64,000 bases of DNA from Candidatus Magasanikbacteria bacterium CG10_big_fil_rev_8_21_14_0_10_36_32 (GCA_002778465.1 PFBV01000005.1:7534-71533); one strand, 5' to 3'; shown: positions 1,957 to 62,920, counted from the stretch's first letter. The notes: generated by a model not told the origin, from the letters alone. Numbers and translations are program-made.

Positions 1957-1994
1957 AAAATAAAATAAAATAAAATTATAAATTTTTTAATCAC

Positions 1995-20390: not shown

Positions 20391-20477
20391 TGGTGACAGG
20401 TGAACCGTTGGGAAGACCTGGCAGCACGAATTTGTTGGAAGTTAAGGAAGTAAAATAAAAAAACTAATACCCATTTA

Positions 20478-20499
20478 AATACCCATTTAAATGGGTATT
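20478..20499. terminator. Perfect 22-nt palindrome AATACCCATTTAAATGGGTATT followed by a T-run. A bidirectional terminator-like element with an identical copy at 61343-61364.
   Basis: Read directly from the sequence. It is preceded by an overlapping direct repeat aatacccatttaaat at 20466-20480. Confidence 0.5.
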
Positions 20500-35445: not shown

Positions 35446-35582
35446 TTTAATTTTTTCTCCTTATTTCTGTTGTTTATTGATTTTATGATTAGTTGAGACA
35501 AAGAACAAACTATTTATAATATATTTTAAAGGTTTTGTCAAGATAGTACTCAATATGTAGAATATTGCATAATCATAAAAAT

Positions 35583-35764
35583 AACCCCTCCGTTGCGGGA
35601 GGGGTTGGAAAGAACTTCGTAGCGTTGGGGACCGATTTACGTCGGGAGCAAAACCGCCAGCGCGGCGACCTCCTGATTTTATCGGGCAATTGCTGCGGGG
35701 TTATAATTCTCCGCATCGTTGATTGGAACAATCACTGGTTTGTCCAGACAACACGGAGGGTTAT
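35583..35764. ncRNA. Candidate structured non-coding RNA or cis-regulatory element. A GC-rich island of about 180 nt is closed by a long-range stem, in the divergent intergenic region. Strand and class are undetermined.
   Basis: The 5' segment ataacccctccgt is complementary to the 3' segment acggagggttat. Internal hairpins include cccctcc/ggagggg, ccgc..gcgg and gattg-gaa-caatc. The segment is strikingly GC-rich against AT-rich flanks. The overlapping 71-aa ORF is probably spurious. Confidence 0.35.
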
Positions 35765-35817
35765 GATAATAAAAATATAGCAAATTTATATAAAATTGTC
35801 AAGTATCTAATAATAGT

Positions 35818-37507: not shown

Positions 37508-39553
37508 ATGGCTCATAAAAAAACATTTATTAAAACCATAACCAAAACTCAGGCTCGCTGGAGAGTGGCCGGTATTGCGATTTTGGCTATTGTTTGTTTG
37601 TTTTTAGTTTTACCAAATTATGTTAATGTTGGATTAAATTGGGTTAACAATCAGGTTAATTTAGGTTTACCATTATTACCGGAGTCAAGTTTTAATTTGG
37701 GTTTGGATTTGCAAGGAGGAGCTCATTTGGTTTATAAGGCTGATGTGATCAAAGTCGCGCCAGATCAGCGTGCAGCTTCAGTTGAAGGTGTCCGAGATGT
37801 GATTGAAAGAAGAGTTCGTGGCGGTTTGGGTGTGGCTGAACCTTTGGTTCAAACCACTAAATTTGGAGAAGAACACAGAGTGATTGTGGAGTTGCCAGGT
37901 GTTACCAATGTTTCTGATGCTATTCAAATGATTGGTGAAACTCCTGTTTTGGAATTTAAAGAAGAAAATAATGATCCACCAAGAGAGTTAACTGTTACGG
38001 AGAAGAAAGATTTAGATGAATTTAATCGATTGGCTGATAAAAAAATTAGAGAAGCGAAAAATGCTTTATACAGAATGAATTTTGAAGAAGCGGTTGGGCA
38101 ATATTCTGAAGATGAAGCCAGTAAAAAAGAATCAGGTAAAATCGGATTTATTACAGAAACAGGCTATCCAGAAATGTATAGCTGGGCTAAAACAGCTGCT
38201 ATTGGTGATGTTTCCGGTGTTATTAAAACAGCCGACGGTTATAGTATAGTTAAAAAATTATCTGAACGAACCGGAGAAAAATCAATCCAAGCATCACATT
38301 TGTTAATTTGTTATAGAGGCGCTGAACGTTGTGATGCAACTTATACCAAATCGTCTGCCAAAGAAAAAATTGAAGAACTTCAAAAACAGATAAATAAAGA
38401 TAATTTTGTTGAATTAACTAAACAATATTCTACCGAACCGGGCGCCCAAGAAGGTGGCGGTGATTTAGGTTTATTTAAAAAAGGAGAAATGGTGCCGGCG
38501 TTTGAAAATGCCGTTTGGGATTTGCCAATGAACACTGTTTCGGAAGTGATTGAAACAGAATTTGGTTATCATTTAGCTATTAAAATAGGAGAAGAACAGA
38601 AAATGGAGTATGAGTTGGCAAAAATTTTTGTTCCTACAAAAAGTGTAACAGACATTATTCCTCCAGTTGGTGAATGGAAGATTACCGGTTTAGACGGGTC
38701 ATTGTTAAAACGAGCTGAGGTTGTACAGAATAGTCAAATTGGAGAAATTCAAGTTAGCTTGACCTTTAACGATGAAGGCGCAAAATTATTTGGCGATATT
38801 ACCAGACGCAATATTGATAAGCCTGTGGCTATTTTCTTGGATGGTGAAGCAATCAGTATACCGAAAGTCAACGAACCAATCCTGGATGGTAGTGCGGTGA
38901 TTACCGGTGGATTTACTTGGGATGAAGCTAAATTATTAGCGCAGCGTTTAAATTCTGGTGCATTGCCTGTTCCTGTTGAATTAATTAGTCAACAGAAAAT
39001 TGATGCCGCTTTGGGTGTTGATTCGTTGACTACCAGTTTTAAGGCCGGATTGATTGGCTTATTACTGGTTATTATATTTATGGTATTCTATTATCGTTTA
39101 CCGGGTTTAATTTCAGTCTTAGCTTTATTAATTTACGCGGCTATCACATTAGCCATCTTTAAGGTTATTGGTGTTACCTTGACCCTTTCTGGAATTGCAG
39201 GTTTTATACTATCTGTTGGTATGGCAGTAGACGCGAATGTGTTGGTATTTGAACGTTTAAAAGAAGAATTAAAACAGGGTAAAAGCTTAAAACCGGCAAT
39301 GGAAGAAGCTTTTGTTCGCGCTTGGACTTCTATTCGTGACAGTAATGTTACCACATTAATCAGTTGTGCATTTTTAATTTGGATGGACATTGGTTTTGTT
39401 CAGGGTTTTGCCGTTACGTTGGCAATTGGTATTTTAGTTAGTATGTTTACTGCTATTATTGTCACTCGAAATTTAATGCGTGTATTTTTTAGCTGTTTCA
39501 AAGACAAAGCTAATTGGTTGTTTTTGGGAAGCTCGTCTAATAAAGAACAATAA
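37508..39553 (+). CDS. secD: Protein translocase subunit SecD with a parvulin-type (PpiC) peptidyl-prolyl isomerase domain inserted in the periplasmic region.
   Basis: SecD N-terminus LNLGLDLQGGAHLVY. Parvulin signature IQASHLLICY...GGGDLGLFKKGEMVPAFENAVWDLPMNTVSEVIETEFGYHLAIKI. C-terminal SecD/F transmembrane bundle. Confidence 0.8.
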   Translation: MAHKKTFIKTITKTQARWRVAGIAILAIVCLFLVLPNYVNVGLNWVNNQVNLGLPLLPESSFNLGLDLQGGAHLVYKADVIKVAPDQRAASVEGVRDVIERRVRGGLGVAEPLVQTTKFGEEHRVIVELPGVTNVSDAIQMIGETPVLEFKEENNDPPRELTVTEKKDLDEFNRLADKKIREAKNALYRMNFEEAVGQYSEDEASKKESGKIGFITETGYPEMYSWAKTAAIGDVSGVIKTADGYSIVKKLSERTGEKSIQASHLLICYRGAERCDATYTKSSAKEKIEELQKQINKDNFVELTKQYSTEPGAQEGGGDLGLFKKGEMVPAFENAVWDLPMNTVSEVIETEFGYHLAIKIGEEQKMEYELAKIFVPTKSVTDIIPPVGEWKITGLDGSLLKRAEVVQNSQIGEIQVSLTFNDEGAKLFGDITRRNIDKPVAIFLDGEAISIPKVNEPILDGSAVITGGFTWDEAKLLAQRLNSGALPVPVELISQQKIDAALGVDSLTTSFKAGLIGLLLVIIFMVFYYRLPGLISVLALLIYAAITLAIFKVIGVTLTLSGIAGFILSVGMAVDANVLVFERLKEELKQGKSLKPAMEEAFVRAWTSIRDSNVTTLISCAFLIWMDIGFVQGFAVTLAIGILVSMFTAIIVTRNLMRVFFSCFKDKANWLFLGSSSNKEQ

Positions 39554-43781: not shown

Positions 43782-43905
43782 AAGACTAATTAGATGCCGT
43801 TAATTCAAGACTTTTTAGTGTTGGGTTAATTATATATGAAAGATAATATATGGACAAGTTGTTCGGCGATTATTTTTTTTATTAACTAAGTCAGATTGAC
43901 ATTGT

Positions 43906-43914
43906 TGATATAAT
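43906..43914 (+). promoter_or_regulatory. Extended -10 element TGaTATAAT upstream of the metallopeptidase gene.
   Basis: gttgaTATAATgtg read directly. No good -35 at 17-nt spacing. Confidence 0.3.
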
Positions 43915-43994
43915 GTGCTAATTTAATTTTATACTTTGTTCTTTAACAATTAACCAATCTCAACAAGATCGGAACAACGCAAGAGAGGTGGAGA

Positions 43995-45971
43995 ATGTGC
44001 GAAAAAATGAAGCGATTTTGGTTGTCAATCAGTGTGATTATTGTGATTTTGATGTTTGTGAGTTGTGGTACTGTGACAGCTTTTGTTCCGCCGGATATCA
44101 GTTTGTCGGTTCTTGATTCTGACATGTTTGACAATGGTGTCATAAATCCACCGTCATCAAAAGTTCCCAGCAGCGTAGCGGTTCCCTTTGAGGCTTTGGA
44201 AACCGAACAGTTACTCAAAAATTTGGTTATTCCCGCCTGTAATTATCGTGATATCACTCTTCGTTTGGCTGATCCGGGAGTTGAAATTCCAGAAGTGGTA
44301 AACACAAACCCGCCAAATTATAAAATTGATGATGAACGACAGTTTTGGGTGTCTAATGTTGACACTGGAAAGTATTACAGTATTATCGCCAAGTTGGTGT
44401 ATAAGACTGAGCATGCTTATATTTGGTTGGAAAAAGGAGCCAAAACTCAATTGGTAAGTCTGAAAAAGGCGGCTGATTTATGGGATAAAAAGTATTATCC
44501 CACAGATCGTGAGTTTTTCGGCAGTGAATGGTCGCCCGGCGTGGATAATGATGCCCGTATTAATTGGCTTATCTCAGATAAAATGGGTGAACATGCGGCT
44601 GGTTATTACAGTAGCATGGATGAATATAGTAAATTAGTTAACAAATATTCCAATGAAATGGAAATGTTCTATCTCAGTTCTGAAAATAATCCGGCCGCTG
44701 TTCCGTATTTTAATGGAGTATTGGCGCATGAGTTTGCTCACATGATTCAATGGTATCACCATTCCAATCAAGCAAATTGGATTGATGAGGGTTTGGCCGA
44801 GTTAGCTGTTCAAATTAATGGTTTAGATCCTGGTTTGAAGCGAATTCGGTTTGCATATAATCCGGACATTCAGCTAAATTCTTGGCCTGAATTGGATAGT
44901 GCTACCGCTTATTATGGTGCCGCCTATATGTTTATGTCTTATTATTTGGATCGTTTTGGAAAAATTGCTACTCAAGCGTTGATTAGTAGCACATCATACA
45001 GTACAGCAGCAATAGACGAAGCTTTGAAAGATAAAAACATTACTTTCAATCAGGTGTTTGCTGATTGGACAATCGCTAATTATATTAATAATTCGAATAT
45101 TGGTAATGGTGAGTACGCTTATCGTACCATTCAACCAACTCGTTTTAAAGCTTGTCAGAAGATTCAGCCAAGTGATTATCCGATAGATATTACTGATAGT
45201 GTTGCTCAATACGGAACTGATTATATTGAAATTTCAGGACATACTGATTTGGAAGTAAAATTTACTGGTGATTCAACTGTTGGTTTGACTGCAGTTACCG
45301 CTCACAGTGGAAAATATATGTGGTGGGGTGGTTCAAATAATGCCAGCGACGCAACCTTGACACGGACATTTGATTTGTCCGGCGCTGAAAAGGCAACATT
45401 GACTTTTTGGACATCGCATGATATTGAAGAAGGATACGATTATGTTTTTGTAGAAGCTTCCGTTGATGGTAAACATTGGACAACTTTACAGGGTACTAAC
45501 ACTGTAATTGATAATCCTAACGGAGCTAATTACGGTTTTGGTTATACTGGTACAAATAATGGTTGGGTTCAAGAAAAAATTAATCTAAGCCAATATGCCG
45601 GAAATAAAGTTCAAATTCGTTTTGAATATATTACTGATGCAGGATTAACCAAGTCTGGTTTTTTCTTGGATGATATTGCAATTCCTGAAATTGGTTATAT
45701 GTCTAATGTAGAGAAGAATAATGGTGGTTGGACAGCGAGAGGATTTGTCCGTAACGCCAATATTTTGCCACAATACTGGTCAATTCAACTTATTACTGTT
45801 GGTTTGACTACTACGGTTGAGAAATTGCCAGTAACCCAAAATGCTACAGGAAATTGGACTGTTCATTTTAAAAAGGATGATACGCGTTATACTGTGTTGG
45901 TAATCAGCGGTTTGACACCGATCACATTGGAACGACCAAGTTATAAGTTGGTTGTTAATATTAAAAAGTAA
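43995..45971 (+). CDS. Secreted zinc metallopeptidase (HExxH...E gluzincin) with a C-terminal beta-sandwich domain resembling a pre-peptidase C-terminal domain.
   Basis: GVLAHEFAHMIQWYH followed by NWIDEGLAELA. N-terminal signal or lipoprotein-like MKRFWLSISVIIVILMFVSCG. The C-terminal part reads YDYVFVEASVDGKHWTTLQG...GWVQEKINLSQYAGNKVQIRFEY. Confidence 0.6.
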   Translation: MCEKMKRFWLSISVIIVILMFVSCGTVTAFVPPDISLSVLDSDMFDNGVINPPSSKVPSSVAVPFEALETEQLLKNLVIPACNYRDITLRLADPGVEIPEVVNTNPPNYKIDDERQFWVSNVDTGKYYSIIAKLVYKTEHAYIWLEKGAKTQLVSLKKAADLWDKKYYPTDREFFGSEWSPGVDNDARINWLISDKMGEHAAGYYSSMDEYSKLVNKYSNEMEMFYLSSENNPAAVPYFNGVLAHEFAHMIQWYHHSNQANWIDEGLAELAVQINGLDPGLKRIRFAYNPDIQLNSWPELDSATAYYGAAYMFMSYYLDRFGKIATQALISSTSYSTAAIDEALKDKNITFNQVFADWTIANYINNSNIGNGEYAYRTIQPTRFKACQKIQPSDYPIDITDSVAQYGTDYIEISGHTDLEVKFTGDSTVGLTAVTAHSGKYMWWGGSNNASDATLTRTFDLSGAEKATLTFWTSHDIEEGYDYVFVEASVDGKHWTTLQGTNTVIDNPNGANYGFGYTGTNNGWVQEKINLSQYAGNKVQIRFEYITDAGLTKSGFFLDDIAIPEIGYMSNVEKNNGGWTARGFVRNANILPQYWSIQLITVGLTTTVEKLPVTQNATGNWTVHFKKDDTRYTVLVISGLTPITLERPSYKLVVNIKK

Positions 45972-45986
45972 TTTTTGTTCTTTGAT

Positions 45987-46016
45987 AGCCCCACAATATG
46001 TGGGGCTTTTTATTTT
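45987..46016 (+). terminator. Intrinsic terminator (agccccacaatatgtggggcttttt).
   Basis: CCCCAC/GTGGGG hairpin followed by a T-run. Confidence 0.6.
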
Positions 46017-46112
46017 TACATTGACAAATACTTAAAAAGGTGATATAGTACTATGTTCTTTACAATAAAACTCTAGTTGGGTAAAAACCAACTACGCCAA
46101 AGGAGGCGTAAA

Positions 46113-47015
46113 ATGGACGAATTTTTGGAAATGAGAACACACCAGAGAAAAGATTGGTTAATTAAGTTAGCAGTTGTAATTATATTATCTGGTTGTCTCG
46201 TAGTGTTTTGTTGTTGGGTTTTTCCTCAGATGAGCTTGTCACCAAGCGTAACTAAGGCATTTATACCTGAAACACTGCCGCCGGCACAGTCTGATCCGAT
46301 GGATAGGTTGGAAAATGATTTGCTCTCTGCTTCGTTCGTTGTGTATGGTTTTTCAAAAGATGGAGAACACAAAAACATTCAATGTTCGGCTACAGTTTTT
46401 GAAAAAGAAGGCAATATTTATCGTTTAATAACTTCTGCTCATTGTTTGGTTGAAGATGAACAATACGATGGTATTGTTAGAGTGTTGCCTTATAATATTT
46501 TCATCGCCCATAACAGTTTGGACAGTCTAATTTTTTCTGCTCGACTGGTTGCTATTGGTTTTCAAGGTCGCTATGATGATTTTGCTGTATTGCAAGCGGA
46601 AATTGTAGACGATACGATTCCTGCTATTCCATTAGCCAAAAGTGACCCGGTGATAGGCGAAGAAGTGGTGAATGTTTCTTTTCCGTCTCTTGTTGGTCGG
46701 CAGTTGGTTAGAGGAATAACAATGATTGAACAAGTAGAAATAAGTTCGGGTGAGATGAAGGGGGATAAAGTTACTGTTTTTGATTTAACTTCTGGTTCTG
46801 GTTCGTCCGGTTCGGCCATTGTTAGTCGAGAACAAAAAGCCATTGTTGGTGTTTTGACTGGTGGTTATTCACAAGAAGGCCAGTTGTTAAATGAAACAAC
46901 TGTAGGTTTGCCGGTTAGCAAGTTTCGTATTTTTTGGGAAGCGGTTAAGGCCGATGAATACCCGTGGTACCAGTCATCCGAAGAGTCGGTTGGTAGTGGA
47001 GACTTTTTATATTAA
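46113..47015 (+). CDS. Secreted trypsin-like serine protease, paralog 1 of 6 (S1/Trypsin_2-like).
   Basis: AGGAGG ribosome-binding site 8 nt upstream. N-terminal transmembrane or signal segment. Catalytic motifs TSAHC (His), DDFAVL (Asp) and GSGSSGSAIV (Ser). Confidence 0.65.
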   Translation: MDEFLEMRTHQRKDWLIKLAVVIILSGCLVVFCCWVFPQMSLSPSVTKAFIPETLPPAQSDPMDRLENDLLSASFVVYGFSKDGEHKNIQCSATVFEKEGNIYRLITSAHCLVEDEQYDGIVRVLPYNIFIAHNSLDSLIFSARLVAIGFQGRYDDFAVLQAEIVDDTIPAIPLAKSDPVIGEEVVNVSFPSLVGRQLVRGITMIEQVEISSGEMKGDKVTVFDLTSGSGSSGSAIVSREQKAIVGVLTGGYSQEGQLLNETTVGLPVSKFRIFWEAVKADEYPWYQSSEESVGSGDFLY

Positions 47016-47040
47016 GGATTAGAGTTTTATTTTATTTTTT

Positions 47041-47066
47041 ACCCCGCCTGTTAAGGTGGGGTTTTA
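47041..47066 (+). terminator. Intrinsic terminator (accccgcctgttaaggtggggtttt).
   Basis: Hairpin followed by a T-run. Confidence 0.6.
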
Positions 47067-47241
47067 ATTTATTATGGTCTATAATTTATTGTTATTTTAG
47101 CCAAAAAAATGATGCATCAAAAATAAATAAAAACACTTGACAGTTTTTTTGTTGTTTGTTACATTACATTTGGTTCTTTTAAAAATTAACTTTTGGTAAA
47201 AACATTTTTAAACAAGTGACTTAACCCACGAGGAGGGTGAA

Positions 47242-48162
47242 ATGGAAAAGAAGATGTTTGGTTTCGTTATGTTTATTATGGCATTCGTTTGCGCAATGAT
47301 GCTCAGCGGGTGTGGAGCAGTCAGTTTCTATAGCGGTTCCAATACCGTGATCAATGCCAGTGGCAATAGCCATTCCGTCAGTGTCCTAGAGAAGGATATG
47401 GAATCGGCCGTGGCTCTGCTTTACGCCAAGAAGGATGACGGGCAGCTGCGCATGTTCTGTACAGCAACCGCTTTTGAGCGTTCGGGTAAGACTTACCGTT
47501 TTGTTACCGCCGCACATTGTGTCGCCGAAGATATCAACGGCATGGTGGAACTGGTACCGTACCAGTGGTTTATCAGTTTCGACGAACCGGGCGTCAAGAC
47601 ATTTTATCCTGCCAAACTGCTCGGCGTTGGTTATCAGAGTCGCGGTGATGATTTCGCCGTACTGGAAACCACCCTGGATCGCCAGATTCCGGTTATTCCG
47701 ATGTCAGCTACCGATGCCGAACTCGGTGAACAGGTAAGTAATGTCGCTTCGCCGCTCGGTTTGGGCAAGCAGCTCTTCCGCGGACATGTGACCACTGTTT
47801 ATATGGACAGGCCTGTTGTAGGTGCCGGTCTTAATTGGACAGGTGCAACATTGCTTCAAATCAGTTGCGGACCCGGATCTTCCGGTTCGTCTGTAGTAAG
47901 TCAGAACAGACACACTATTGTTTCTATTCTGGTCGGTATGATTTACCGAGGTCCGGCGGTGTTCATTGTTTCCATTCCGGTAACAAAGTTCAACCGTTTT
48001 TGGAGAGATATTCAAACCAATAAGTACCCTTGGTACGCGCCTGCCTTCAATGCCAACGGAATTCCCGTTTCTACAAGCAGCAGCCAGCGAGATCTTTCGA
48101 ACTTTATGAATCGGATTGATCGTGGTCTGTCGGTTGTTTTGGAACCGGAACCCACTAAGTAA
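47242..48162 (+). CDS. Secreted trypsin-like serine protease, paralog 2, with a lipoprotein-like signal.
   Basis: GGAGGG ribosome-binding site. Signal MFGFVMFIMAFVCAMMLSGCG. Catalytic motifs TAAHC, DDFAVL and CGPGSSGSSVV. Confidence 0.65.
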   Translation: MEKKMFGFVMFIMAFVCAMMLSGCGAVSFYSGSNTVINASGNSHSVSVLEKDMESAVALLYAKKDDGQLRMFCTATAFERSGKTYRFVTAAHCVAEDINGMVELVPYQWFISFDEPGVKTFYPAKLLGVGYQSRGDDFAVLETTLDRQIPVIPMSATDAELGEQVSNVASPLGLGKQLFRGHVTTVYMDRPVVGAGLNWTGATLLQISCGPGSSGSSVVSQNRHTIVSILVGMIYRGPAVFIVSIPVTKFNRFWRDIQTNKYPWYAPAFNANGIPVSTSSSQRDLSNFMNRIDRGLSVVLEPEPTK

Positions 48163-48190
48163 ACCTACCAAAAGCTCTTTAACACTCCTA

Positions 48191-48217
48191 ACCCCCAATG
48201 AAATTTGGGGGTTTTTT
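48191..48217 (+). terminator. Intrinsic terminator (acccccaatgaaatttgggggtttttt).
   Basis: Hairpin followed by a T-run. Confidence 0.6.
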
Positions 48218-48327
48218 ATGTTATTATGTTTGACATTTTTTTGTAAAAATGCTTTAATAGCTCAAGTTCCTTACAACAAAACAATATTGTCCTCTGCCAA
48301 ATGGAAAATGGGGACGAAGGAGGAGTG

Positions 48328-49092
48328 ATGAGACAAAATTGTATATGGTTGGTTATTTTGGTAGCGATTATGTTTTCAATGTTGACGACCAGTGTTTCGT
48401 CCGATGAAATATCGGATCAACAGCTGGAAAGAGATCTTCAGAAAGCTACTGCCACGGTGTATATTAATACTGATGAAGGAGATATGGAACCAATATGTTC
48501 AGCTGTGGCGTTCAAGCGCGGAGCTGATAATACTTATTATTTTATCACTTCATCTGATTGTCTCGGTGATGACCTGGTTGTGAGTTTATTTGGAGATGTT
48601 ATTACTGAGATGGATTTTTATCTTGCTTTCAATCAAGCCGGCAAGGTAAAAATGTTTCCGGCGAAGATTACTCAAGTTATTCGTAGTCAGCAATTGTATG
48701 GTGGGGGAGTTGTAATTTTTCAGTCAGTTCTTTATTGGAATATTCCGGTTATTCCACTGGCGACTGATTCAATGAAAGCCGGTGAAAAAATAATTAATTA
48801 CTCCCTGATCAGTAATCCGGATCAGCCCATATTTAATGGTTGGGTGACCAGAATGAAGGTTTCAAAACCGTTAGTGGTCAATGGAATAGAAAATTTCAAC
48901 GCCATTGTACTTTGTGTGAATCAGAATATAGACAATAAATTGGCTGTATCTGATCCGATAATTGTTAGTCGTGATCAAAGAGTCATTGTAGCTATTTTTG
49001 TTGGCACGGCTAATTATTTTGGGGTGAAAAAGCCGGCCGCTGTTCCTATCAATAAAATTATTACATCCGCACCCACAGAAGACAAACAGTAG
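48328..49092 (+). CDS. Degenerate paralog 3 of the protease family, a predicted catalytically dead pseudo-protease.
   Basis: The family N-terminal signature is retained (CSAVAFKRGADNTYYFITSSDC), but His is replaced by Asp (TSSDC), and the DDFAVL Asp motif and the GSSGS Ser motif are both absent. AGGAGG ribosome-binding site and N-terminal transmembrane segment are present. Confidence 0.55.
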   Translation: MRQNCIWLVILVAIMFSMLTTSVSSDEISDQQLERDLQKATATVYINTDEGDMEPICSAVAFKRGADNTYYFITSSDCLGDDLVVSLFGDVITEMDFYLAFNQAGKVKMFPAKITQVIRSQQLYGGGVVIFQSVLYWNIPVIPLATDSMKAGEKIINYSLISNPDQPIFNGWVTRMKVSKPLVVNGIENFNAIVLCVNQNIDNKLAVSDPIIVSRDQRVIVAIFVGTANYFGVKKPAAVPINKIITSAPTEDKQ

Positions 49093-49108
49093 ATTTTTTG
49101 TTCATTTT

Positions 49109-49140
49109 AACCCCCGACATTGTTCGGGGGTTTTATTTTT
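49109..49140 (+). terminator. Intrinsic terminator (aacccccgacattgttcgggggtttt).
   Basis: Hairpin followed by a T-run. Confidence 0.6.
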
Positions 49141-49235
49141 TCCTCATAACTTGACTGTTTATTCAACCGTATGTTAATGTAATTATACAGGTTCTTTAAC
49201 AAACAAAATAACCAATTGCCTTAGGGAGGCTTCAA

Positions 49236-50195
49236 ATGGACAACAGAACGTTTAAACAAATTTGTCTTATTGCCGGCATTACATTGGTCGGCTCCATGCT
49301 TGTGGTGTTGTTGTGTATGGTGGCTTTTATGGCTGGTTCTATGAATAATCGCTTGGTTGTTCAACAGCCAATTTATGGCTACGCGCCTCCGCCGTCGATT
49401 TCCGAATCAGAGGAATCGCTTGCGCAGTTGGAAAATGACGCAATCAATGCTACTGCCTTGCTATATTTTGAAAACAAATCCGGCGGAATGGATTTTTATT
49501 GTACCGCCACCGCTTTTGAGAGGGTGGGTCATTACTATAAATTTCTTACCGCCGCGCATTGTGTTTCCAGTGACGATACTGTCAATAAAATGGTTCGTAT
49601 TAAGCCGGGGAAATGGTATATCAATTTTGATATGCCTAACAATAATGAATTTCATAGAGCGAACGTACTCGCTGCCGGTTATATGTCAGACGGAGATGAT
49701 GTAGCGGTATTGGGGGCTTATCTGGATGATTTTAACCCGATTATTAATTTGTCTCAGGAAGACGCTGTAATCGGTGAACGCATAATTAATATTGCTGGTC
49801 CGCGTGACCTTGGAAAGCAGCTTATTCGGGGTAATATCAGCCAAGTAACTCCTGGGAGAGGTTCGTTTTTGAGTGATAGAATAATGATTCAGATTCATAG
49901 CGGTGGTGGTTCGTCCGGTTCGGCGATTATTAGCCAGAATAAGAAAGCAATTGTTGGTGTATTGGTAGCTGGTTTCGGTGGTTTTTTTCAAATGGAACCG
50001 TTTTACGATGTAACTGTAGCTGTTCCTATTGGAAAGTTTCATCGTTTTTGGGCAGCTATCAAAGCGAATAATTATGAACATTTTAATTTTGAAAGTTATG
50101 AGCCGACAAATCAGCTTTCAAAGGATATGGACACTCCGGTTGATTCCGACACTGGAACAGATGCTGGAGTTGATTGTTCTAATTCGGACAAATAA
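49236..50195 (+). CDS. Secreted trypsin-like serine protease, paralog 4.
   Basis: GGGAGG ribosome-binding site. N-terminal transmembrane segment. Catalytic motifs TAAHC, DDVAVL and SGGGSSGSAII. Confidence 0.65.
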   Translation: MDNRTFKQICLIAGITLVGSMLVVLLCMVAFMAGSMNNRLVVQQPIYGYAPPPSISESEESLAQLENDAINATALLYFENKSGGMDFYCTATAFERVGHYYKFLTAAHCVSSDDTVNKMVRIKPGKWYINFDMPNNNEFHRANVLAAGYMSDGDDVAVLGAYLDDFNPIINLSQEDAVIGERIINIAGPRDLGKQLIRGNISQVTPGRGSFLSDRIMIQIHSGGGSSGSAIISQNKKAIVGVLVAGFGGFFQMEPFYDVTVAVPIGKFHRFWAAIKANNYEHFNFESYEPTNQLSKDMDTPVDSDTGTDAGVDCSNSDK

Positions 50196-50240
50196 ATCCA
50201 TTGATTTTGTTTCTTAATTAACTTAGTTCTTTTATGTCTT

Positions 50241-50275
50241 ATCCTCCTAACTTTGGTTAGGAGGATATTTTTTTT
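50241..50275 (+). terminator. Intrinsic terminator (atcctcctaactttggttaggaggat followed by T9).
   Basis: 11-bp perfect stem and a T-run. Confidence 0.6.
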
Positions 50276-52280: not shown

Positions 52281-52307
52281 TTAGAGTGTTGTACTTTTCG
52301 GCAAGGT

Positions 52308-52377
52308 TCCGAGACTAGGATTCGAACCTAGATAACGAGATTCAGAGTCTCGTGTCCTACCATTAGACGATCTCGGA
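52308..52377 (-). tRNA. tRNA-Gln (anticodon CUG).
   Basis: Manual cloverleaf. Acceptor UCCGAGA/UCUCGGA, U8. D-arm GUCU-AAUGGUA-GGAC. Anticodon stem CGAGA/UCUCG with loop CUCUGAA (U33, CUG, A37). T-arm CUAGG-UUCGAAU-CCUAG. Discriminator A. CCA is not encoded. Confidence 0.8.
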
Positions 52378-52412: not shown

Positions 52413-52456
52413 ATTGGTGAGGGGGCGGGCCTAGACCTGCCTGCCGGCAGGCAGGT
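52413..52456. repeat. Right inverted-repeat arm followed by a GC-rich perfect palindrome (cctgcctgccggcaggcagg).
   Basis: Read directly. It sits between the full tRNA and the partial tRNA copy. Confidence 0.5.
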
Positions 52457-52500
52457 AACGAGATTCAGAGTCTCGTGTCCTACCATTAGACGATCTCGGA
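52457..52500 (-). repeat. 44-nt exact duplicate of the 5' half of tRNA-Gln (acceptor 5' strand through the anticodon stem).
   Basis: Identical to 52334-52377. It lacks a T-arm and acceptor 3' strand, so it is not a functional tRNA. Confidence 0.7.
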
Positions 52501-54996: not shown

Positions 54997-57552
54997 TTAC
55001 AAACGTGGCCCGGAGTCAACACCAATTTCTCTTTTACTTGTCGCCCCAAGTTTAGAACGTTCCATAATTTCTTCTTCAACAATTTCTCTCGGGCGGCCAT
55101 ATTTTAAACGGGATAATTCTTTGATTGCCGCTGCCAGTTCGGTATTGCCTTTTTGTGGCGGATAGGGACTAAAATTAAACGGTTTAGCTGCCGTGTTGTC
55201 AATTAATAATTTTAAATAGACAGTGTATTGTTCAATATTGATTAAATCATAAGCTCCAAAAACAGGTGCAAATTCTTTAGCTAATATTTCAGCATCTTCA
55301 GTGCCAATGCGATAAACAGCAATCGTACCGGCATTTCCCAAGACAGCATCACGAACAGTGGATTTTCCTTTATTATCTTCCAGTTGTTTTAAATATTGAT
55401 GGGCAATAGTAAGATTTAATCGGTATTTTCGAGCTTCAGAAAGAATGGTGGCAATAGATTCGGTAATAAAGTTTTGAAATTCGTCTATATATAAGAAAAA
55501 GTCGTGACGTTGGTCTTCAGGAAGAGAAGCTCGTTCCATTGCTGCCATTTGCAGTTTGGAAACAATAATCATGCCCAATAAATTGGAATTAATTTCTCCA
55601 ACCAAACCTTTGGCCAAATTAACTAATAATATTTTTTTCTTATCCATTATTTCACGGAAATTAAAACCGGAATGTGTTTGTCCGACAATATTGCGAACCA
55701 TTGAATTTTCCACAAATCGTCCGACTTTGGAAATTAAATAACCAAGCATTTCCGATTTGTGAAAGTCGGAGGTTTTTGCCATTTCTTGATTCCAAAAATT
55801 TAAAACCACCGGATCTTTAATTTTCTTTTTCCATTCAGTCACAAAAGTATCATCAGTAAACATTCTTGGAATCTCAGCAATGGTACCGGGATTTTCATTG
55901 TCTGACATTAAAGTCAGCATCACATTTCTCATTTGATGTTCAAACATCGGTCCAATCATTGATGGATCGGTGACCAATTTATAAAAAATTGATATCATTT
56001 CTTGATTAATAAAATCTTTTTGATCCTCTGTTTTTGCTTCCAACATATTTAAACCAATCGGTCGTTCTACATCGGACGGATTAAAATAAATCACATCTTC
56101 TGCTCGTTCTTTTGGTACATGCTGTAAAACATACTCAACAAAATCTCCGTGCGGATCTATAACACAAACACCCTCGCCGTTTTGTACATCTTGAACGGCC
56201 AAATTTTGTAATAATACGGTTTTACCGCTGCCTGATTTACCAACCACATAGAAATGACGTCTTCGATCAGCTCTTTTCATTTTTACGATAGTTTCTTCAC
56301 CTCGATAAACAGTTCTCCCAAGAGTAATGCCTTCCCGTGGCATATTTACTGGCGGAGGGGCTTTACGAGCTCCAAGCCAGTTAATATGAGGTGTTTCAGT
56401 TAAAGATGTCGGTAAATGCCAAAAACTGGCCATTTCCTCAGTATTGGTTATCATAGATAAACCGGGTCGCATTGTTCGGTGAATTGATTCACGAATTAAT
56501 GTGTCTGGTTTTTTTGGAATAACTGCACCAAAAGAATTACCGTAACGGTAAATGTTATATTGATTAAATGAGTTTAAGATATTTTCTAAGTTTAATTGAG
56601 CTTTTTCGTTGGAGGATGAAGTACTGACAACACGAATTGTAATTTCCAATCCGCCGTGGCTGATTTTATCTTCCATTCCTTTTAACATTTCTTCTTCCAT
56701 TTGTGTCATTCGGTAAGATTCAGTGGGGGATTGTTCCTTGTTTTGTTTTTTTGGTTTAGACCATTTTTTAAATAAGTTTGATATACCGGTTCGGCGCACT
56801 ACATTTTCAAATTTTTCTCCGGCGCGTATTTCTCTAATTATTCTTACTCCGTCTTTTCGCCATTCGGTTGAAGCCGGACGAACGACGTATTGAATAATAG
56901 CCCCCTCATTTTCTACTAGTTTGCTTAAGGGATTTAATAATCCCACAAGTGGATCACTGTCCATTTGTTTATATGTTTTGAACGGAAAAACTGATTTTTG
57001 TTTGAACCACAGGTAAGCGCCGACTATGTGGCTATCCGGTTTGAAAATATTATAATCGGTTTCTTCGGTAATTTCCGCGTGTGGATACTGAGCGTGGATT
57101 TGTTGAGAAACAAAATCTTTCATTTTATCAGGTACGGCCACATAAAAAGATATTTTACTGTCTCTGACCACCACTTCAAATGAAAAAAGTTCTTTTGGTC
57201 CCAAAAACCATGACATAAATCCTTGTTCGCGCCGCAATCCGGCAAGGGAAGAAAATAAAGTGGCAGCTATGGCAATTTGCTCACGATTTTGACTAACGGT
57301 ATCAGTGCCAGCATTTAAAGTTTCACCTTTTTTTTCTTTTGGTACGCGGATAAGTATGATGGTTTTGTGAAAAGCCTTACTATCAAGATTTTTTATTTGA
57401 AGAATTTTTCTAATCAAATTAAAAACAATAATTAAAGCGGCAACAAAAAGTGGAATCAGTAATAACCAAAGCCAATCCGCGCTTGGTGTTGGAATTGTTG
57501 AGGCGCTTAAAGACATTGTGTCAAGCGGATTGATTGGAAATTGATTTTCCAT
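54997..57552 (-). CDS. VirB4/TrbE/CagE-family (T4SS-type) ATPase with an N-terminal transmembrane helix and a large N-terminal domain.
   Basis: Walker A HFYVVGKSGSGKTVLLQN. Walker B-like FFLYIDEFQNF. The RKYRLNLTIAHQ motif matches the VirB4 RK...TQ signature. N-terminal transmembrane segment WLWLLLIPLFVAALIIVFNL. Confidence 0.6.
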   Translation of the reverse strand: MENQFPINPLDTMSLSASTIPTPSADWLWLLLIPLFVAALIIVFNLIRKILQIKNLDSKAFHKTIILIRVPKEKKGETLNAGTDTVSQNREQIAIAATLFSSLAGLRREQGFMSWFLGPKELFSFEVVVRDSKISFYVAVPDKMKDFVSQQIHAQYPHAEITEETDYNIFKPDSHIVGAYLWFKQKSVFPFKTYKQMDSDPLVGLLNPLSKLVENEGAIIQYVVRPASTEWRKDGVRIIREIRAGEKFENVVRRTGISNLFKKWSKPKKQNKEQSPTESYRMTQMEEEMLKGMEDKISHGGLEITIRVVSTSSSNEKAQLNLENILNSFNQYNIYRYGNSFGAVIPKKPDTLIRESIHRTMRPGLSMITNTEEMASFWHLPTSLTETPHINWLGARKAPPPVNMPREGITLGRTVYRGEETIVKMKRADRRRHFYVVGKSGSGKTVLLQNLAVQDVQNGEGVCVIDPHGDFVEYVLQHVPKERAEDVIYFNPSDVERPIGLNMLEAKTEDQKDFINQEMISIFYKLVTDPSMIGPMFEHQMRNVMLTLMSDNENPGTIAEIPRMFTDDTFVTEWKKKIKDPVVLNFWNQEMAKTSDFHKSEMLGYLISKVGRFVENSMVRNIVGQTHSGFNFREIMDKKKILLVNLAKGLVGEINSNLLGMIIVSKLQMAAMERASLPEDQRHDFFLYIDEFQNFITESIATILSEARKYRLNLTIAHQYLKQLEDNKGKSTVRDAVLGNAGTIAVYRIGTEDAEILAKEFAPVFGAYDLINIEQYTVYLKLLIDNTAAKPFNFSPYPPQKGNTELAAAIKELSRLKYGRPREIVEEEIMERSKLGATSKREIGVDSGPRL

Positions 57553-59261: not shown

Positions 59262-59351
59262 AAATTGACTAAATACTTGTCATGTGCTAAGTTACTTTTG
59301 GTGTTCTTTAAAAATTATTCAGCCAAAAAGTCACTTTGGTCGGAGGAAACA

Positions 59352-60140
59352 ATGAGTCAGAAAAAAGAGTCTATGAGTCGTTTGGAAAAAGATTTGCTGG
59401 CGGCTACAGTTTTTTGTATCATGATTGTAAATATAACGGTTAAGGATGAAAAAACCGGCAGGAAAAAGAGGCAGGACGATGTTCGTCAATTTTCCGCCAC
59501 CGCCTTTGAAAAGGAAGGCAACATTTATCGATTTATAGCGGCGGCGCATTGTATTGGTGACAATAATCAGATGTGTGATGATATTATGAATAATTCGTTG
59601 AAAATTCCTCCCATGATTTATTTGTCCAAAAATAGTCTGGCTACTAAACAGGGTATCTATAGAGCTAAATTAGTAGCTATGGGAAAATTGTCTGAAGGTG
59701 AAGATTTTGCCGTTTTGGAAGCGGAAATAAACGATTGTGAAATAACGGTTATCCCATTAGTAGATTCTAATTTGGAAATGGGCGATGAAGTCATTAATAT
59801 TGCCACGCCAATTGGTTGGGACAAAACATTGTTTCGTGGTTATGTCGCCAATCTAAATATGGATAAATTTAAATATTCCATCGGAGAAGATTCAATTGAA
59901 ATTAAAACTGCCATACTGTGCAGTCTGCCATCTGGACCTGGTTCTTCCGGTTCAGCCATTGTCAGTGAAAAACATGGCGGCATTGTGGCAATTTTAGTAT
60001 CCAGTTTGAAATCCGGAAAAAAAACAATTGCGCCCGTTTCGGTTGTTTTACCGATTAGAATGTTTAAAGAGTTTTGGAAGATGTTTAAATTGGAAATTAA
60101 ATCTAATCAATATTTTGAAGAAAATATTGATTTTGTTTAA
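59352..60140 (+). CDS. Secreted trypsin-like serine protease, paralog 5.
   Basis: GGAGG ribosome-binding site. Start at MSQKKESM. Catalytic motifs AAAHC, EDFAVL and SGPGSSGSAIV. Confidence 0.65.
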   Translation: MSQKKESMSRLEKDLLAATVFCIMIVNITVKDEKTGRKKRQDDVRQFSATAFEKEGNIYRFIAAAHCIGDNNQMCDDIMNNSLKIPPMIYLSKNSLATKQGIYRAKLVAMGKLSEGEDFAVLEAEINDCEITVIPLVDSNLEMGDEVINIATPIGWDKTLFRGYVANLNMDKFKYSIGEDSIEIKTAILCSLPSGPGSSGSAIVSEKHGGIVAILVSSLKSGKKTIAPVSVVLPIRMFKEFWKMFKLEIKSNQYFEENIDFV

Positions 60141-60198
60141 TTTAGAGGTTGTCACGGAAAAATCGGCTGAATAATATTTTTTGTTCTTTCTTAAATTT

Positions 60199-60223
60199 AC
60201 CCCGATTCAAATCGGGGTTTTTA
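60199..60223 (+). terminator. Intrinsic terminator (accccgattcaaatcggggttttt).
   Basis: Hairpin followed by a T-run. Confidence 0.6.
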
Positions 60224-60305
60224 TTTTATCTCTTGACCATCTTATATATAGTTGGTAGATTACCTTATTGTTCTTTTACAATAACAACGCTTAAGGAGGC
60301 GAAAA

Positions 60306-61232
60306 ATGGTTAAGAAGAATGAATCCGGACTTGTTACTCAACCTAAAGAAAGTTTTTTGTCGCCATTGGAACAAAAGGCGATGGCGGCAACCGGTGTGAT
60401 GACATCTATGATGGAAGCTGTAGATAGTGCTACTGGAGAAAAATTTTTGATACCTCGGGGTATGTGTACAGCCACGGCCTTCAAACGCCGTGGCAATGTC
60501 TATTATTTTATTACCGCCGCGCATTGCGCTGGTATAGCCGGACCTACTCAGGGTGATATGTGTTTACCTGAAGATAGTGATCGTGGTTTTATTAGAGTAA
60601 TGCCATGGAAATGGTTTATTGATTTGAGCGAAGGCGGTTTATCACTGTCTGTTTTGCATGAAGCAGAACTTTATTCCATTGGTCACACTGGACAAGGCGA
60701 TGATTTTGCTGTTTTTAAAGTTAAGTTGCAAAAACCTATTCCAGTTATGCCACTGGCTCTCTGGGATCCGCGAGTTGGTGAGCCCGTCATCAATGTGGCC
60801 GCGCCGGCGAATTTGGGCAAGCAGCTTTTTCGTGGTCATGTCAGTAGAGAATATTTTTCGACTAGGGGTGACAAAGATGCGGGAAAGGTTTTGTTTCAGT
60901 TGCCGTGCGCCCCAGGTTCTTCCGGTTCGTCCATTATTAGTCAGTCGCAAAAAGGTATTATTGCTATTTTGAATGAATCAATTAGTATTTCTTCGACCAC
61001 AGATGATGGTAAAGAATTTGTTACTCAACTTAATTCTGCCGCTTTGCCTGTTAGTCGGTTCGTGAAGTTTTGGAAATTATCCGAAAAAGGTGAATACCCT
61101 TATCCGGCTTTTGTTCCGTTGAATTTTCAGCCATGGATGCTTGGCTTGGAGGATATACCCGAATTAAACGATGCTTGTGGCAATTGTGAAGGTTGTGAAT
61201 GTCATTCTAAAAAAAACATTCACGGAAGATGA
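60306..61232 (+). CDS. Trypsin-like serine protease, paralog 6 (no obvious N-terminal hydrophobic segment).
   Basis: AGGAGG ribosome-binding site. Catalytic motifs TAAHC, DDFAVF and CAPGSSGSSII. The C-terminus is Cys-rich (CGNCEGCECH). Confidence 0.65.
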   Translation: MVKKNESGLVTQPKESFLSPLEQKAMAATGVMTSMMEAVDSATGEKFLIPRGMCTATAFKRRGNVYYFITAAHCAGIAGPTQGDMCLPEDSDRGFIRVMPWKWFIDLSEGGLSLSVLHEAELYSIGHTGQGDDFAVFKVKLQKPIPVMPLALWDPRVGEPVINVAAPANLGKQLFRGHVSREYFSTRGDKDAGKVLFQLPCAPGSSGSSIISQSQKGIIAILNESISISSTTDDGKEFVTQLNSAALPVSRFVKFWKLSEKGEYPYPAFVPLNFQPWMLGLEDIPELNDACGNCEGCECHSKKNIHGR

Positions 61233-61307
61233 ACCATCGGAATCACTTTTAGAAAAATAGGGTATTTCTTCGACTGAAGAAGTGTCTGAATAATTTTTGT
61301 TCTTTTT

Positions 61308-61336
61308 ACCCCACCTATTTAGGTGGGGTTTTTATT
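61308..61336 (+). terminator. Intrinsic terminator (accccacctatttaggtggggttttt).
   Basis: Hairpin followed by a T-run. Confidence 0.6.
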
Positions 61337-61342
61337 TTAAAT

Positions 61343-61364
61343 AATACCCATTTAAATGGGTATT
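61343..61364. terminator. Second copy of the palindrome AATACCCATTTAAATGGGTATT, lying between convergent genes.
   Basis: Identical to 20478-20499. Confidence 0.5.
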
Positions 61365-61393: not shown

Positions 61394-62920
61394 TTATATT
61401 TTTGTTACTTTTGTTCCGGTAGTGTCGTCTTCAACCTGATATCCAAGTACAATCAGTCGATCGCGAATTTCGTCGCTGGTTTGCCAATTTTTATTTTTTC
61501 TCGCTTCATCCCGTTTAAAAATCAATTGTTGTATTTCTTTTGGCAATTCTTCTTGTTGATCAAGTTTTTCTACCTGATTTTTTATATCCAAACCAAAAAT
61601 TTCGTCAAATTTTAAAATTGTTTGCCAGTTGATTTGTTTATTTTTTATAGCCGTCCAAACTCCGGCCAGTGCTTTTGGTGTATCCAAATCATTATTAACC
61701 GCTGTTAAAAATTCATTTTCCAAGTTAATGTCGGTTTTAATTTCTTTGGTTTTTAATTCTGCCGCCGCTTGGTATAAATGATGTACACCGCTGGCAGCTG
61801 CTTCTAACGCTTCCCAAGAAAAATTTAATTGTTTGCGATAATGAGTTTGCAGTAAAAAGTAGCGGTAGGCTAGAGAGTCAATTCCTTTCTCTTTCAGCGT
61901 ATTCACAGTGATAAAATTGCCGGACGATTTGGACATTTTTACATAATTCATTAAACCACATTTGGGACATTTGCCCATTTGATTTTCTGATCTACCTTCT
62001 CTATTTATCCCCTGAATTGCGATTTTATGTATCATTTTAGGAATATATTTTTCACCACACGATTCACAAATTACCTCATCGTTTGTATTTGTCGGAGGAA
62101 TTTTTATAAATTCATTATGTAACCAGTAATTTGCCATTGTTTTTCCGTTGGCGGTTTCGCTTTGGGCTATTTCATTAGTGTGATGGACGGGAACATGATC
62201 AATACCGCCACAATGAATATCAAATGGCTGACCGAGATATTTTACCGACATAGCCGAACACTCAATATGCCAGCCAGGAAAACCAACGCCCCAAGGACTG
62301 CTCCATTCCATCTGTCGTTTTTGTCCAAATGGTGAAAATTTCCACAAAGCAAAATCAGTTATATTTTTTTTGCCACCCATGTTCACTCTGGCTCCGCCAA
62401 GCAATTCGTCTTTATTCAACTGCGCTAATTTGCCGTAATCGTTTAATTTGGAAGTGTCAAAATAAATTCCGTCGGAAGTTTCATAAATAAAACCTTTTTT
62501 CTCAAGTTTTTTTATAAGTTTAATTTGTTCTTTAATGTGAACGGTTGCTCGGCACCAAATATCCGGTTCCTCAATATTTAAATCGGCTAAATTTTCTCGG
62601 AATGCCTTGATATAAAAAGCGGCGATATCCCAAGCGCTTTTTCCTTCGCGCTTGGCTCCTTTTTCCATTTTATCTTCACCTTCGTCGGCGTCGCTGGTTA
62701 AATGTCCGACGTCGGTGATGTTCATTACATGTTTAACTTTATAACCATTATATTTTAAGACACGTTTTAAAATATCTTCAAAAATATAGGAACGAAGATT
62801 TCCGATGTGTGCGTAATTATAAACCGTCGGGCCGCAAGTGTATATTCCAACTTTTCTGTCTTTAATTGGTTTAAATTCTTCAATTTTTCTATTTAAAGTG
62901 TTGTATAGATTGATATTCAT
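61394..62920 (-). CDS. cysS: Cysteinyl-tRNA synthetase (class I), with a Cys-rich insertion before KMSKS.
   Basis: HIGH motif [20 protein letters not shown] motif KMSKSSGN. Inserted segment [11 protein letters not shown]...GKCPKCG. Confidence 0.9.

Follow-up and report, generated by a model that had tools for sequence, protein, structure and literature searches.

The stretch of DNA considered here (the window) comprises 64 kb (64,000 nucleotides) out of the larger genome of Candidatus Magasanikbacteria bacterium CG10_big_fil_rev_8_21_14_0_10_36_32 (GCA_002778465.1 PFBV01000005.1:7534-71533), a metagenome-assembled genome from groundwater that belongs to a low-GC lineage of the candidate phyla radiation (CPR, or Patescibacteria). 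It carries six same-strand open reading frames (ORFs) of one trypsin-like family, four of them consecutive (P1 to P4) and two forming a pair further on (P5 and P6, 59352-61232), exactly where a preliminary description of this DNA had placed them. A hidden Markov model (HMM) of the family matched precisely these six genes in the window, for which the count of six holds. In the existing annotation, the products of the family genes go by the names hypothetical protein or "trypsin-like peptidase domain-containing" protein; those of P2 and P3 are 100% identical to the hypothetical proteins COU29_03635 and COU29_03640. We regard the six genes as probably an ancient, lineage-specific expansion of HtrA-like serine endopeptidases without a PDZ domain (clan PA, S1, Trypsin_2), organized as separate units whose products are sorted differently and act in cell-surface proteolysis, P3 being non-catalytic. 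The units are given below with the coding sequence (CDS), predicted promoter, Shine-Dalgarno (SD) site, and terminator of each; leader and pre-terminator boxes are copies of the heptamer GTTCTTT or a variant of it.

46021-47062 (+), P1 unit: CDS 46113-47015 (300 aa); promoter TTGACA-N17-TGaTATAGT 46021-46049; leader box 46055-46061; SD site AAGGAGG 46100-46106; terminator 47041-47062.
47137-48213 (+), P2 unit: CDS 47242-48162 (306 aa); promoter 47137-47165; leader box 47173-47179; SD site 47230-47236; terminator 48190-48213.
48230-49132 (+), P3 unit: CDS 48328-49092 (254 aa); promoter TTGACA-N17-TTTAAT 48230-48258; leader box variant GTTCCTT 48266-48272; SD site 48317-48323; terminator 49109-49132.
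49151-50267 (+), P4 unit: CDS 49236-50195 (319 aa); promoter 49151-49180; leader box 49191-49197; SD site 49223-49229; pre-terminator box GTTCTTT 50226-50232; terminator 50240-50267, with the different stem TATCCTCCTAAC.
59265-60218 (+), P5 unit: CDS 59352-60140 (262 aa); promoter 59265-59293; leader box 59303-59309; SD site GGAGG 59342-59346; pre-terminator box GTTCTTT 60183-60189; terminator 60199-60218.
60233-61364 (+), P6 unit: CDS 60306-61232 (308 aa); promoter 60233-60261; leader box 60270-60276; SD site 60293-60299; pre-terminator box GTTCTTT 61299-61305; terminator 61308-61329, followed by a palindrome at 61343-61364.

Protease family, fold, and kinship with HtrA

Five of the six products exceed the gathering threshold of Pfam Trypsin_2 (PF13365, 27.6 bits), the profile named in the preliminary description: P1 (42.4 bits, E = 1.6e-10), P2 (48.2 bits, E = 2.4e-12), P4 (41.6 bits, E = 2.7e-10), P5 (34.0 bits, E = 5.7e-08), and P6 (35.3 bits, E = 2.4e-08). 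The same five keep an intact His/Asp/Ser triad in the canonical order, carried by the motifs TAAHC, (D/E)DFAVL, and GSSGS (TSAHC, DDFAVL, and GSSGS in P1), and the triad of P2 is His92/Asp137/Ser214. In an alignment of 21 family members, the TAAHC His, both Asp residues of GDDFAVL, and all five residues of G-S-S-G-S are invariant. In a profile search of PDB sequences, the Asp of DDFAVL aligned with the catalytic Asp of Mycobacterium tuberculosis HtrA (TDLAVL), as did the second GSSGS Ser with the Ser of GNSGG. The shared motifs had been proposed to lie at the S1/Trypsin_2 catalytic positions, and this holds for the five paralogs above; it does not extend to P3, which lacks the motifs and has no Pfam match.

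The AlphaFold (AF2) model of P2 has a predicted local distance difference test score (pLDDT) of 83.4, and its best Foldseek matches are the protease domains of DegS, DegP, and HtrA (E ~1e-11, target TM-score ~0.76, 16-20% identity, probability 1.00 for DegS/HtrA). The AF2 model of P3 (pLDDT 83.7) likewise has HtrA/DegS as its top Foldseek matches (probability 1.00), and the double beta-barrel chymotrypsin fold is the modelled fold of both proteins.

This kinship is the starting point of the main rival to surface proteolysis, namely envelope protein quality control, in which the paralogs would be HtrA-like housekeeping proteases that degrade misfolded exported proteins and have become sub-functionalised by location. 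It is the alternative most to be reckoned with, though on balance we consider it unlikely. In its favor, HtrA, DegP, and DegS (MEROPS S1C) are the closest match to the protease domain in both structures and sequence profiles, a strand motif of HtrA type, G-L-G-x-x-(L/V)-x-x-G-(H/I)-V-S, stands ahead of the active-site loop (G-L-G-K-Q-L-F-R-G-H-V-S in the family alignment), and the P2-type gene is widespread as a single copy in many lineages, as a housekeeping function would be. However, the paralogs are not canonical HtrA proteins because the PDZ domain, which senses substrates and gates activity in HtrA proteins, is absent: the Pfam scan found no PDZ family in any paralog at E<=0.1, and the proteins end 40-90 residues past the protease domain. 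The cut-offs of the NCBIfam degP_htrA_DO and DegS models (TIGR02037 and TIGR02038) are far from being reached, the best scores being 21 versus 416 bits (P5) and 15 versus 423 bits (P6), with no match for the other paralogs, and no named NCBIfam family was found for any of them. In addition, the paralogs carry TAAHC with a paired Cys, conserved 20 residues upstream, in place of the TNxHV type of HtrA, and have a distinct C-terminal helix (KF..FW....Y.WY) followed by a variable tail. By analogy, TAAHC and the upstream Cys would correspond to the His-loop disulfide of classical secreted S1 enzymes. The clustering of the genes with an InhA-like secreted metallopeptidase gene, and a copy number of six, which exceeds the need of quality control alone, also speak against a housekeeping role. 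Judging from sequence and models, the paralogs appear to be trypsin-fold serine endopeptidases nearest to HtrA, with which they share a predicted place in the envelope, yet outside the HtrA family; they represent an uncharacterised PDZ-less branch that is widespread in uncultured bacteria.

Two other affiliations were considered. A defence-system protease was rejected, there being weak generic PADLOC matches alone (PDC-M35A, 1e-8 to 1e-3; RT-Protease, 4e-5) and no reverse transcriptase or partner gene nearby. The Ig-protease arrays of the Mollicutes MIB-MIP system (NCBIfam NF045841) resemble the present one in that a reduced-genome bacterium carries repeated surface serine protease genes, but the match of P5 is faint (18.7 bits versus a cut-off of 125 bits) and no MIB partner accompanies the genes, so that the family is not a member.

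Age of the expansion and punctuation of the units

Identity among the paralogs is 25-36% when all are aligned together and 28-46% when pairs are aligned locally. At the DNA level, identity between copies is 60-80% and confined to the catalytic motifs, with no near-identical segments. Orthologues of the array genes were found together on the following metagenomic contigs:

L012 (sample SRR22387786): P1-P2-P3-P4.
L076 (sample SRR22388036): P2-P3-P4.
L075 (sample SRR22388036): P5-P6, the orthologues being adjacent.
L074 (sample ERZ27247707): P2-P3.

Position-matched identity to L012 is 48% for P1, 63% for P2, 39% for P3, and 59% for P4, all higher than every cross-paralog value; the P4 orthologue in L076 is 50% identical, and for every one of the six a closer orthologue of its own exists elsewhere. 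The ratio of nonsynonymous to synonymous substitution (dN/dS, NG86) is 0.15-0.30 with dS saturated (>1.5), the signature of purifying selection on the paralogs. Because the position-matched orthologues are the closest relatives and dS is saturated, the duplications are judged to predate the lineages whose orthologues are 39-63% identical, and the copies to be old. While the window holds six copies, a single copy was found at each of 72 other related loci (72/72; genome and metagenome collections, mostly GC-rich contigs and many of them short). The sequences thus support an expanded S1/Trypsin_2-type serine protease family, as described previously, and the expansion is real, unusual, and restricted to this lineage.

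A recent mobile island was rejected, since the array is flanked by housekeeping genes (SecDF, Dus, DnaX, CysS, CorA) and is syntenic in relatives. Recent duplication, gene conversion, or diversification of the diversity-generating retroelement (DGR) type was rejected as well, given that there are no long high-identity repeats and that Pfam revealed no reverse transcriptase in eighteen neighbouring proteins.

The upstream regions of the six paralogs and of the neighbouring InhA-like gene align with one another, showing TTGAC(A/T/C), a spacer of 17-18 nt, and an extended -10. In its strict form, this promoter pattern has nine occurrences in the window (0.73 expected), six of them upstream of P1, P2, P4, P5, P6, and the InhA-like gene; the P3 promoter, with its variant -10 TTTAAT, falls outside the strict pattern. 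All six genes have an AGGAGG-type SD site 5-9 nt ahead of the ATG, as first noticed in the preliminary description, and a hairpin with a T-run lies 3' of every one. Because each gene has its own promoter, SD, and terminator signals, each paralog is predicted to be an independent and probably strongly expressed transcription unit, in agreement with the earlier proposal of independent transcription; the promoters would be near-consensus sigma-70 promoters with an extended -10. The InhA-like unit is laid out in the same way (promoter, box, box, terminator):

43896-46007 (+), gene of an InhA-like (M6-type) metallopeptidase lipoprotein: CDS 43995-45971; promoter 43896-43924; leader box GTTCTTT 43938-43944; pre-terminator box GTTCTTT 45977-45983; CCCC/GGGG terminator 45987-46007.

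Its product matches InhA-like_MAM in Pfam (1.3e-32) and HExxH-type metalloproteases in NCBIfam, and has the lipobox FVSC.

The terminators differ somewhat from what had been reported. Not four but five of the six genes (P1, P2, P3, P5, and P6) are followed by a CCCC..GGGG hairpin, the stem after P4 being unrelated as stated, and the 22-nt palindrome AATACCCATTTAAATGGGTATT, which had been assigned to a fifth gene as its terminator, is an extra element past P6's own terminator (61343-61364), before a convergent gene at 61394-62920(-). An identical copy, 41 kb away (0 expected), lies at 20478-20499, where it forms the terminator of a pyruvate kinase gene and is preceded by a partial tandem copy at 20465.

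A model built on the preliminary description takes the array as recently duplicated, diversifying cassettes, in which each gene was copied together with its terminator and all six products are secreted, active proteases. The uniform layout of the units, a terminator after P1 that is 82% identical to that of P6 over 44 nt, and the similar stems of P2 and P3 would fit this model. It is nevertheless very improbable in view of the low paralog identity, the saturated dS, the closer orthologue of each paralog in other organisms, the dead P3, and the missing signals of P5 and P6 (see below). Moreover, terminators of the CCCC..GGGG kind are found after the InhA-like gene (45987) and after two unrelated units (24120(+) and 35583(-)), and their stems share little past the G/C clamp; promoter and leader features likewise flank unrelated genes. 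Because the duplications are old, the CCCC/GGGG hairpins cannot be remnants of a joint duplication of gene and terminator; together with the GTTCTTT box, they are apparently genome-wide punctuation.

The GTTCTTT box (variants GTTCATT and GTTCCTT) stands 6-14 nt downstream of the -10 of near-consensus promoters. At 7 of 18 terminators it is also found 1-8 nt ahead of the hairpin (binomial p ~5e-13):

Leader positions: 43938, 46055, 47173, 48266 (variant), 49191, 59303, 60270, and 35500(-).
Pre-terminator positions: 24112, 45977, 50226, 60183, 61299, 35609(-), and 34940(-).

The box also flanks unrelated units, a GNAT gene and a putative small RNA (sRNA), and occurs in L012, L074, L075, and L076; both positions are kept in three related organisms whose proteins are 40-67% identical. 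At 7 of 38 GC-rich loci, the promoter and box are likewise found ahead of the single-copy protease orthologue. The core of the box, TTCTTT, agrees with TTNTTT, the NusG-dependent pause motif of Bacillus subtilis (PMC9963633, PMC8060035). Pairing of the box with the SD site was rejected, the two sequences not being complementary by eye.

The putative sRNA (35574-35802, minus strand) has a near-consensus promoter, TTGACA-N17-TGCTATATT (35802-35774), and, ~190 nt on, a strong terminator of the CCCC/GGGG kind (35606-35583); no convincing ORF lies in between. A folding energy of -63.6 kcal/mol (z = -3.6) was predicted for the RNA, which has no match in Rfam; the element may encode a small non-coding RNA.

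P2 is the family-typical member, with 45-67% identity to the single-copy orthologues elsewhere. Its GC content is 0.49 (GC3 0.52), against 0.36-0.43 in its neighbours and ~0.36 in the surrounding DNA and the window average, and it is chiefly through P2 that GC reaches 0.40-0.42 at 46-50 kb. The L012 orthologue (GC 0.45) shows a weaker form of this pattern, albeit with saturated synonymous sites. The high GC of P2 could stem from codon usage selected for high expression or from a gene transfer long ago, with GC-rich relatives as donors.

Some single-copy orthologues (L002, L004, L006, L007, L008, and L011) come from metagenome-assembled genomes (MAGs) labelled Vicinamibacterales, Gammaproteobacteria, and Binatia. 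The promoter and GTTCATT box of L002 and L007 are almost identical to those of the Patescibacteria-labelled L003, and L006 and L007 each have a neighbour gene family in common with Patescibacteria-labelled loci; this may point to artefacts of binning in the MAG labels or to mobility of the gene. At 5 of the 11 genome loci (L003, L004, L007, L009, and L010), the single-copy gene adjoins one for a large (~750-1100 aa) Pur_ac_phosph_N and Big_13 Ig-like protein, which is not adjacent in the window and may be a conserved surface partner or substrate.

P3, a paralog without the catalytic triad

The array had been described as four paralogous proteases, and this has to be amended, as one of the four, P3, is predicted to be catalytically dead. 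All three triad positions are changed (His to Asp, Asp to Gly, Ser to Asp), with TSSDC in place of TAAHC, GGGVVIF in place of DDFAVL, and AVSDP in place of GSSGS; there is a four-residue insertion at the active-site loop, and the C-terminal helix and tail are missing. Homology to the active family is nonetheless plain (hhalign probability 100%, E 6e-40; family HMM 114.7 bits). That P3 is a mere decaying pseudogene in an eroding array is hardly credible at all: the loss of the three residues and of the C-terminal extension and the lack of a Pfam match would agree with decay, but the ORF is intact with its own predicted promoter, SD site, signal peptide, and terminator, dN/dS against the L012 orthologue is 0.26, the confident model keeps the fold, P3 adjoins P2 in all four contigs that carry it (window, L012, L074, and L076), and the six known members of the P3 clade, from different samples and 37-58% identical, all have intact ORFs, with 60 invariant columns in five of them.

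The triad is absent in 6/6 of these clade members. The clade is small: when 1.84 billion cluster representatives (clusters at 50% identity) were searched exhaustively with an HMM, 3 P3-type clusters were found, after which the score falls from 218 to 99 bits, where the active family starts, and a metagenome scan with a P3-clade profile gave no matches. Because the fold is kept in P3 and its six known relatives, P3 appears to be a conserved pseudoprotease and not a decaying gene. This reminds us of pseudoproteases in general, dead homologues kept as binding or regulatory proteins, which P3 resembles in its retained fold, its loss of nucleophile, base, and acid, its purifying selection, and its adjacent active paralog; it differs from them in the tiny size of its clade and in that a partner and function of P3 are a proposal. 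Since the whole triad is lost yet P3 is conserved beside P2, it most likely has a non-catalytic role towards the active paralogs, such as that of a decoy, a regulator, or a partner that binds substrates, and the constant position beside P2 suggests such a partner role.

Sorting, role of the array, and other features of the window

The N-termini differ between the copies, as noted before. P1 and P4 have N-terminal hydrophobic anchors of 22-26 residues (hydropathy of 3.04 in P1), P2 has the lipobox LSGC, which is kept in many P2 orthologues, and P3 has a signal peptide of the cleavable type. P1 to P4 (4/6) thus look exported. An export signal had been reported missing from P6 alone; it is missing from P5 too, and both proteins start directly at the conserved LEKDL motif that follows the signal in the other paralogs. 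The L075 orthologue of P5 is likewise leaderless, and in the P5 clade (the window copy and the L075 orthologue) Phe replaces the first Cys of the His-loop pair. P6 ends in a Cys-rich tail, CGNCEGCECH, that is absent from its orthologue. The missing signals, the lost Cys of the P5 clade, and the P6 tail are consistent with a cytoplasmic location of P5 and P6, and the designation of all six as secreted is not tenable.

We propose that the ancestor was a single-copy P2-type gene for a lipoprotein or secreted enzyme, from which six subfamilies would have arisen and been kept as separate genes in the fixed order P1-P2-P3-P4 plus the P5-P6 pair. P1 and P4 would be anchored in the membrane by the N-terminal helix and P2 by lipid, whereas P3 would be released in soluble form, and P5 and P6 would remain cytoplasmic or take a non-classical route. 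P1, P2, and P4 would be cell-surface endopeptidases acting by the classical His-Asp-Ser charge relay and, with the adjacent InhA-like metallopeptidase, would digest external or envelope proteins. Cell-surface proteolysis is the most likely role on this evidence. The clustering with an exported InhA-like metallopeptidase and the reduced genome lead us to favour digestion of external or partner-cell proteins, and amino-acid scavenging or host-surface remodelling, as suggested in the preliminary description, is plausible.

Several points weigh against this proposal. Export signals were called from hydropathy and lipoboxes only, and promoters and terminators from consensus only. P5 residues 16-30 are moderately hydrophobic and could conceivably anchor the protein, though they align to the first beta-strand. 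The synteny is drawn from three other samples, with four short metagenomic contigs between them, and a nutritional or surface role is not told apart from envelope quality control.

A more elaborate scheme, which we put forward as quite doubtful, is a two-component surface machine in which secreted, dead P3 joins lipid-anchored, active P2 (perhaps also P1 or P4) in hetero-oligomers like HtrA-type trimers. P3 would recognise targets or gate activity, replacing the PDZ domain in trans, in an organism that processes host or partner-cell proteins, and the whole set with the InhA-like metallopeptidase would form one regulon through the shared promoter and GTTCTTT box.

The Spl proteases of Staphylococcus aureus belong to the S1B subfamily, are much more alike mutually, and, as far as is known, all have signal peptides. 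They offer a parallel in that about six paralogous trypsin-fold serine protease genes with exported products occur in one genome. However, the present array consists of separately punctuated units that are deeply diverged and include one dead and two leaderless members. The six tandem spl genes (splA-F) are referred to as a single operon (PMC5061998, PMC8765433), and a co-transcribed operon of this type is not predicted here, each gene having its own predicted promoter and hairpin/T-run terminator. Tandem S1 protease arrays (e.g., S. aureus spl; PMC5061998) and pseudoproteases are thus already known, and the refinements are the conserved dead paralog and the differences in localisation within a family. 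We found no paper on this array in the literature, nor relevant ones on protease expansions in CPR bacteria or Magasanikbacteria or on their promoter motifs.

The array is an annotation refinement and a fairly ordinary family expansion that does not overturn current understanding. Given the tiny genomes of CPR bacteria and their presumed dependence on other cells, six genes for one protease family beside a metallopeptidase gene probably mark a function of importance at the interface, for instance in acquiring nutrients or remodelling surfaces. The array also offers expressible candidates (three exported, predicted-active enzymes, one conserved pseudoenzyme, and two leaderless forms) and a natural case in which duplication was followed by sub-localisation and the evolution of a pseudoenzyme.

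The flanks of the array are ordinary chromosomal genes, encoding SecDF, Dus, a GT2 glycosyltransferase, LD-carboxypeptidase, an EamA transporter, tRNA-Gln, DnaX, a VirD4-like ATPase, and CorA; the 508-aa ORF at 61394-62920(-) was read by eye as CysS. A C39-like peptidase gene and the LD-carboxypeptidase gene lie near the array. The first 48 nt (52330-52377) of tRNA-Gln(CTG) (52305-52377, minus strand) are copied with 98% identity at 52453-52500, 123 nt upstream; this partial copy directly follows the C39-like peptidase gene and is itself followed by a perfect GC-rich palindrome, and it could be an integration/deletion remnant or a truncated tRNA copy. The T4SS-pilin-like N-terminus and Ig-like domain of a 649-aa protein, the giant 3531-aa ORF that follows it (both within 7-12590), and the VirD4/TrwB-like coupling ATPase at 54997-57552(-) are possibly parts of a CPR surface or secretion apparatus. 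In the SecD homologue (37508-39553), the periplasmic region contains an insertion of two peptidyl-prolyl isomerase (rotamase) domains of the PPIC type, so that a translocon subunit and a folding catalyst are, unusually, fused in one protein.

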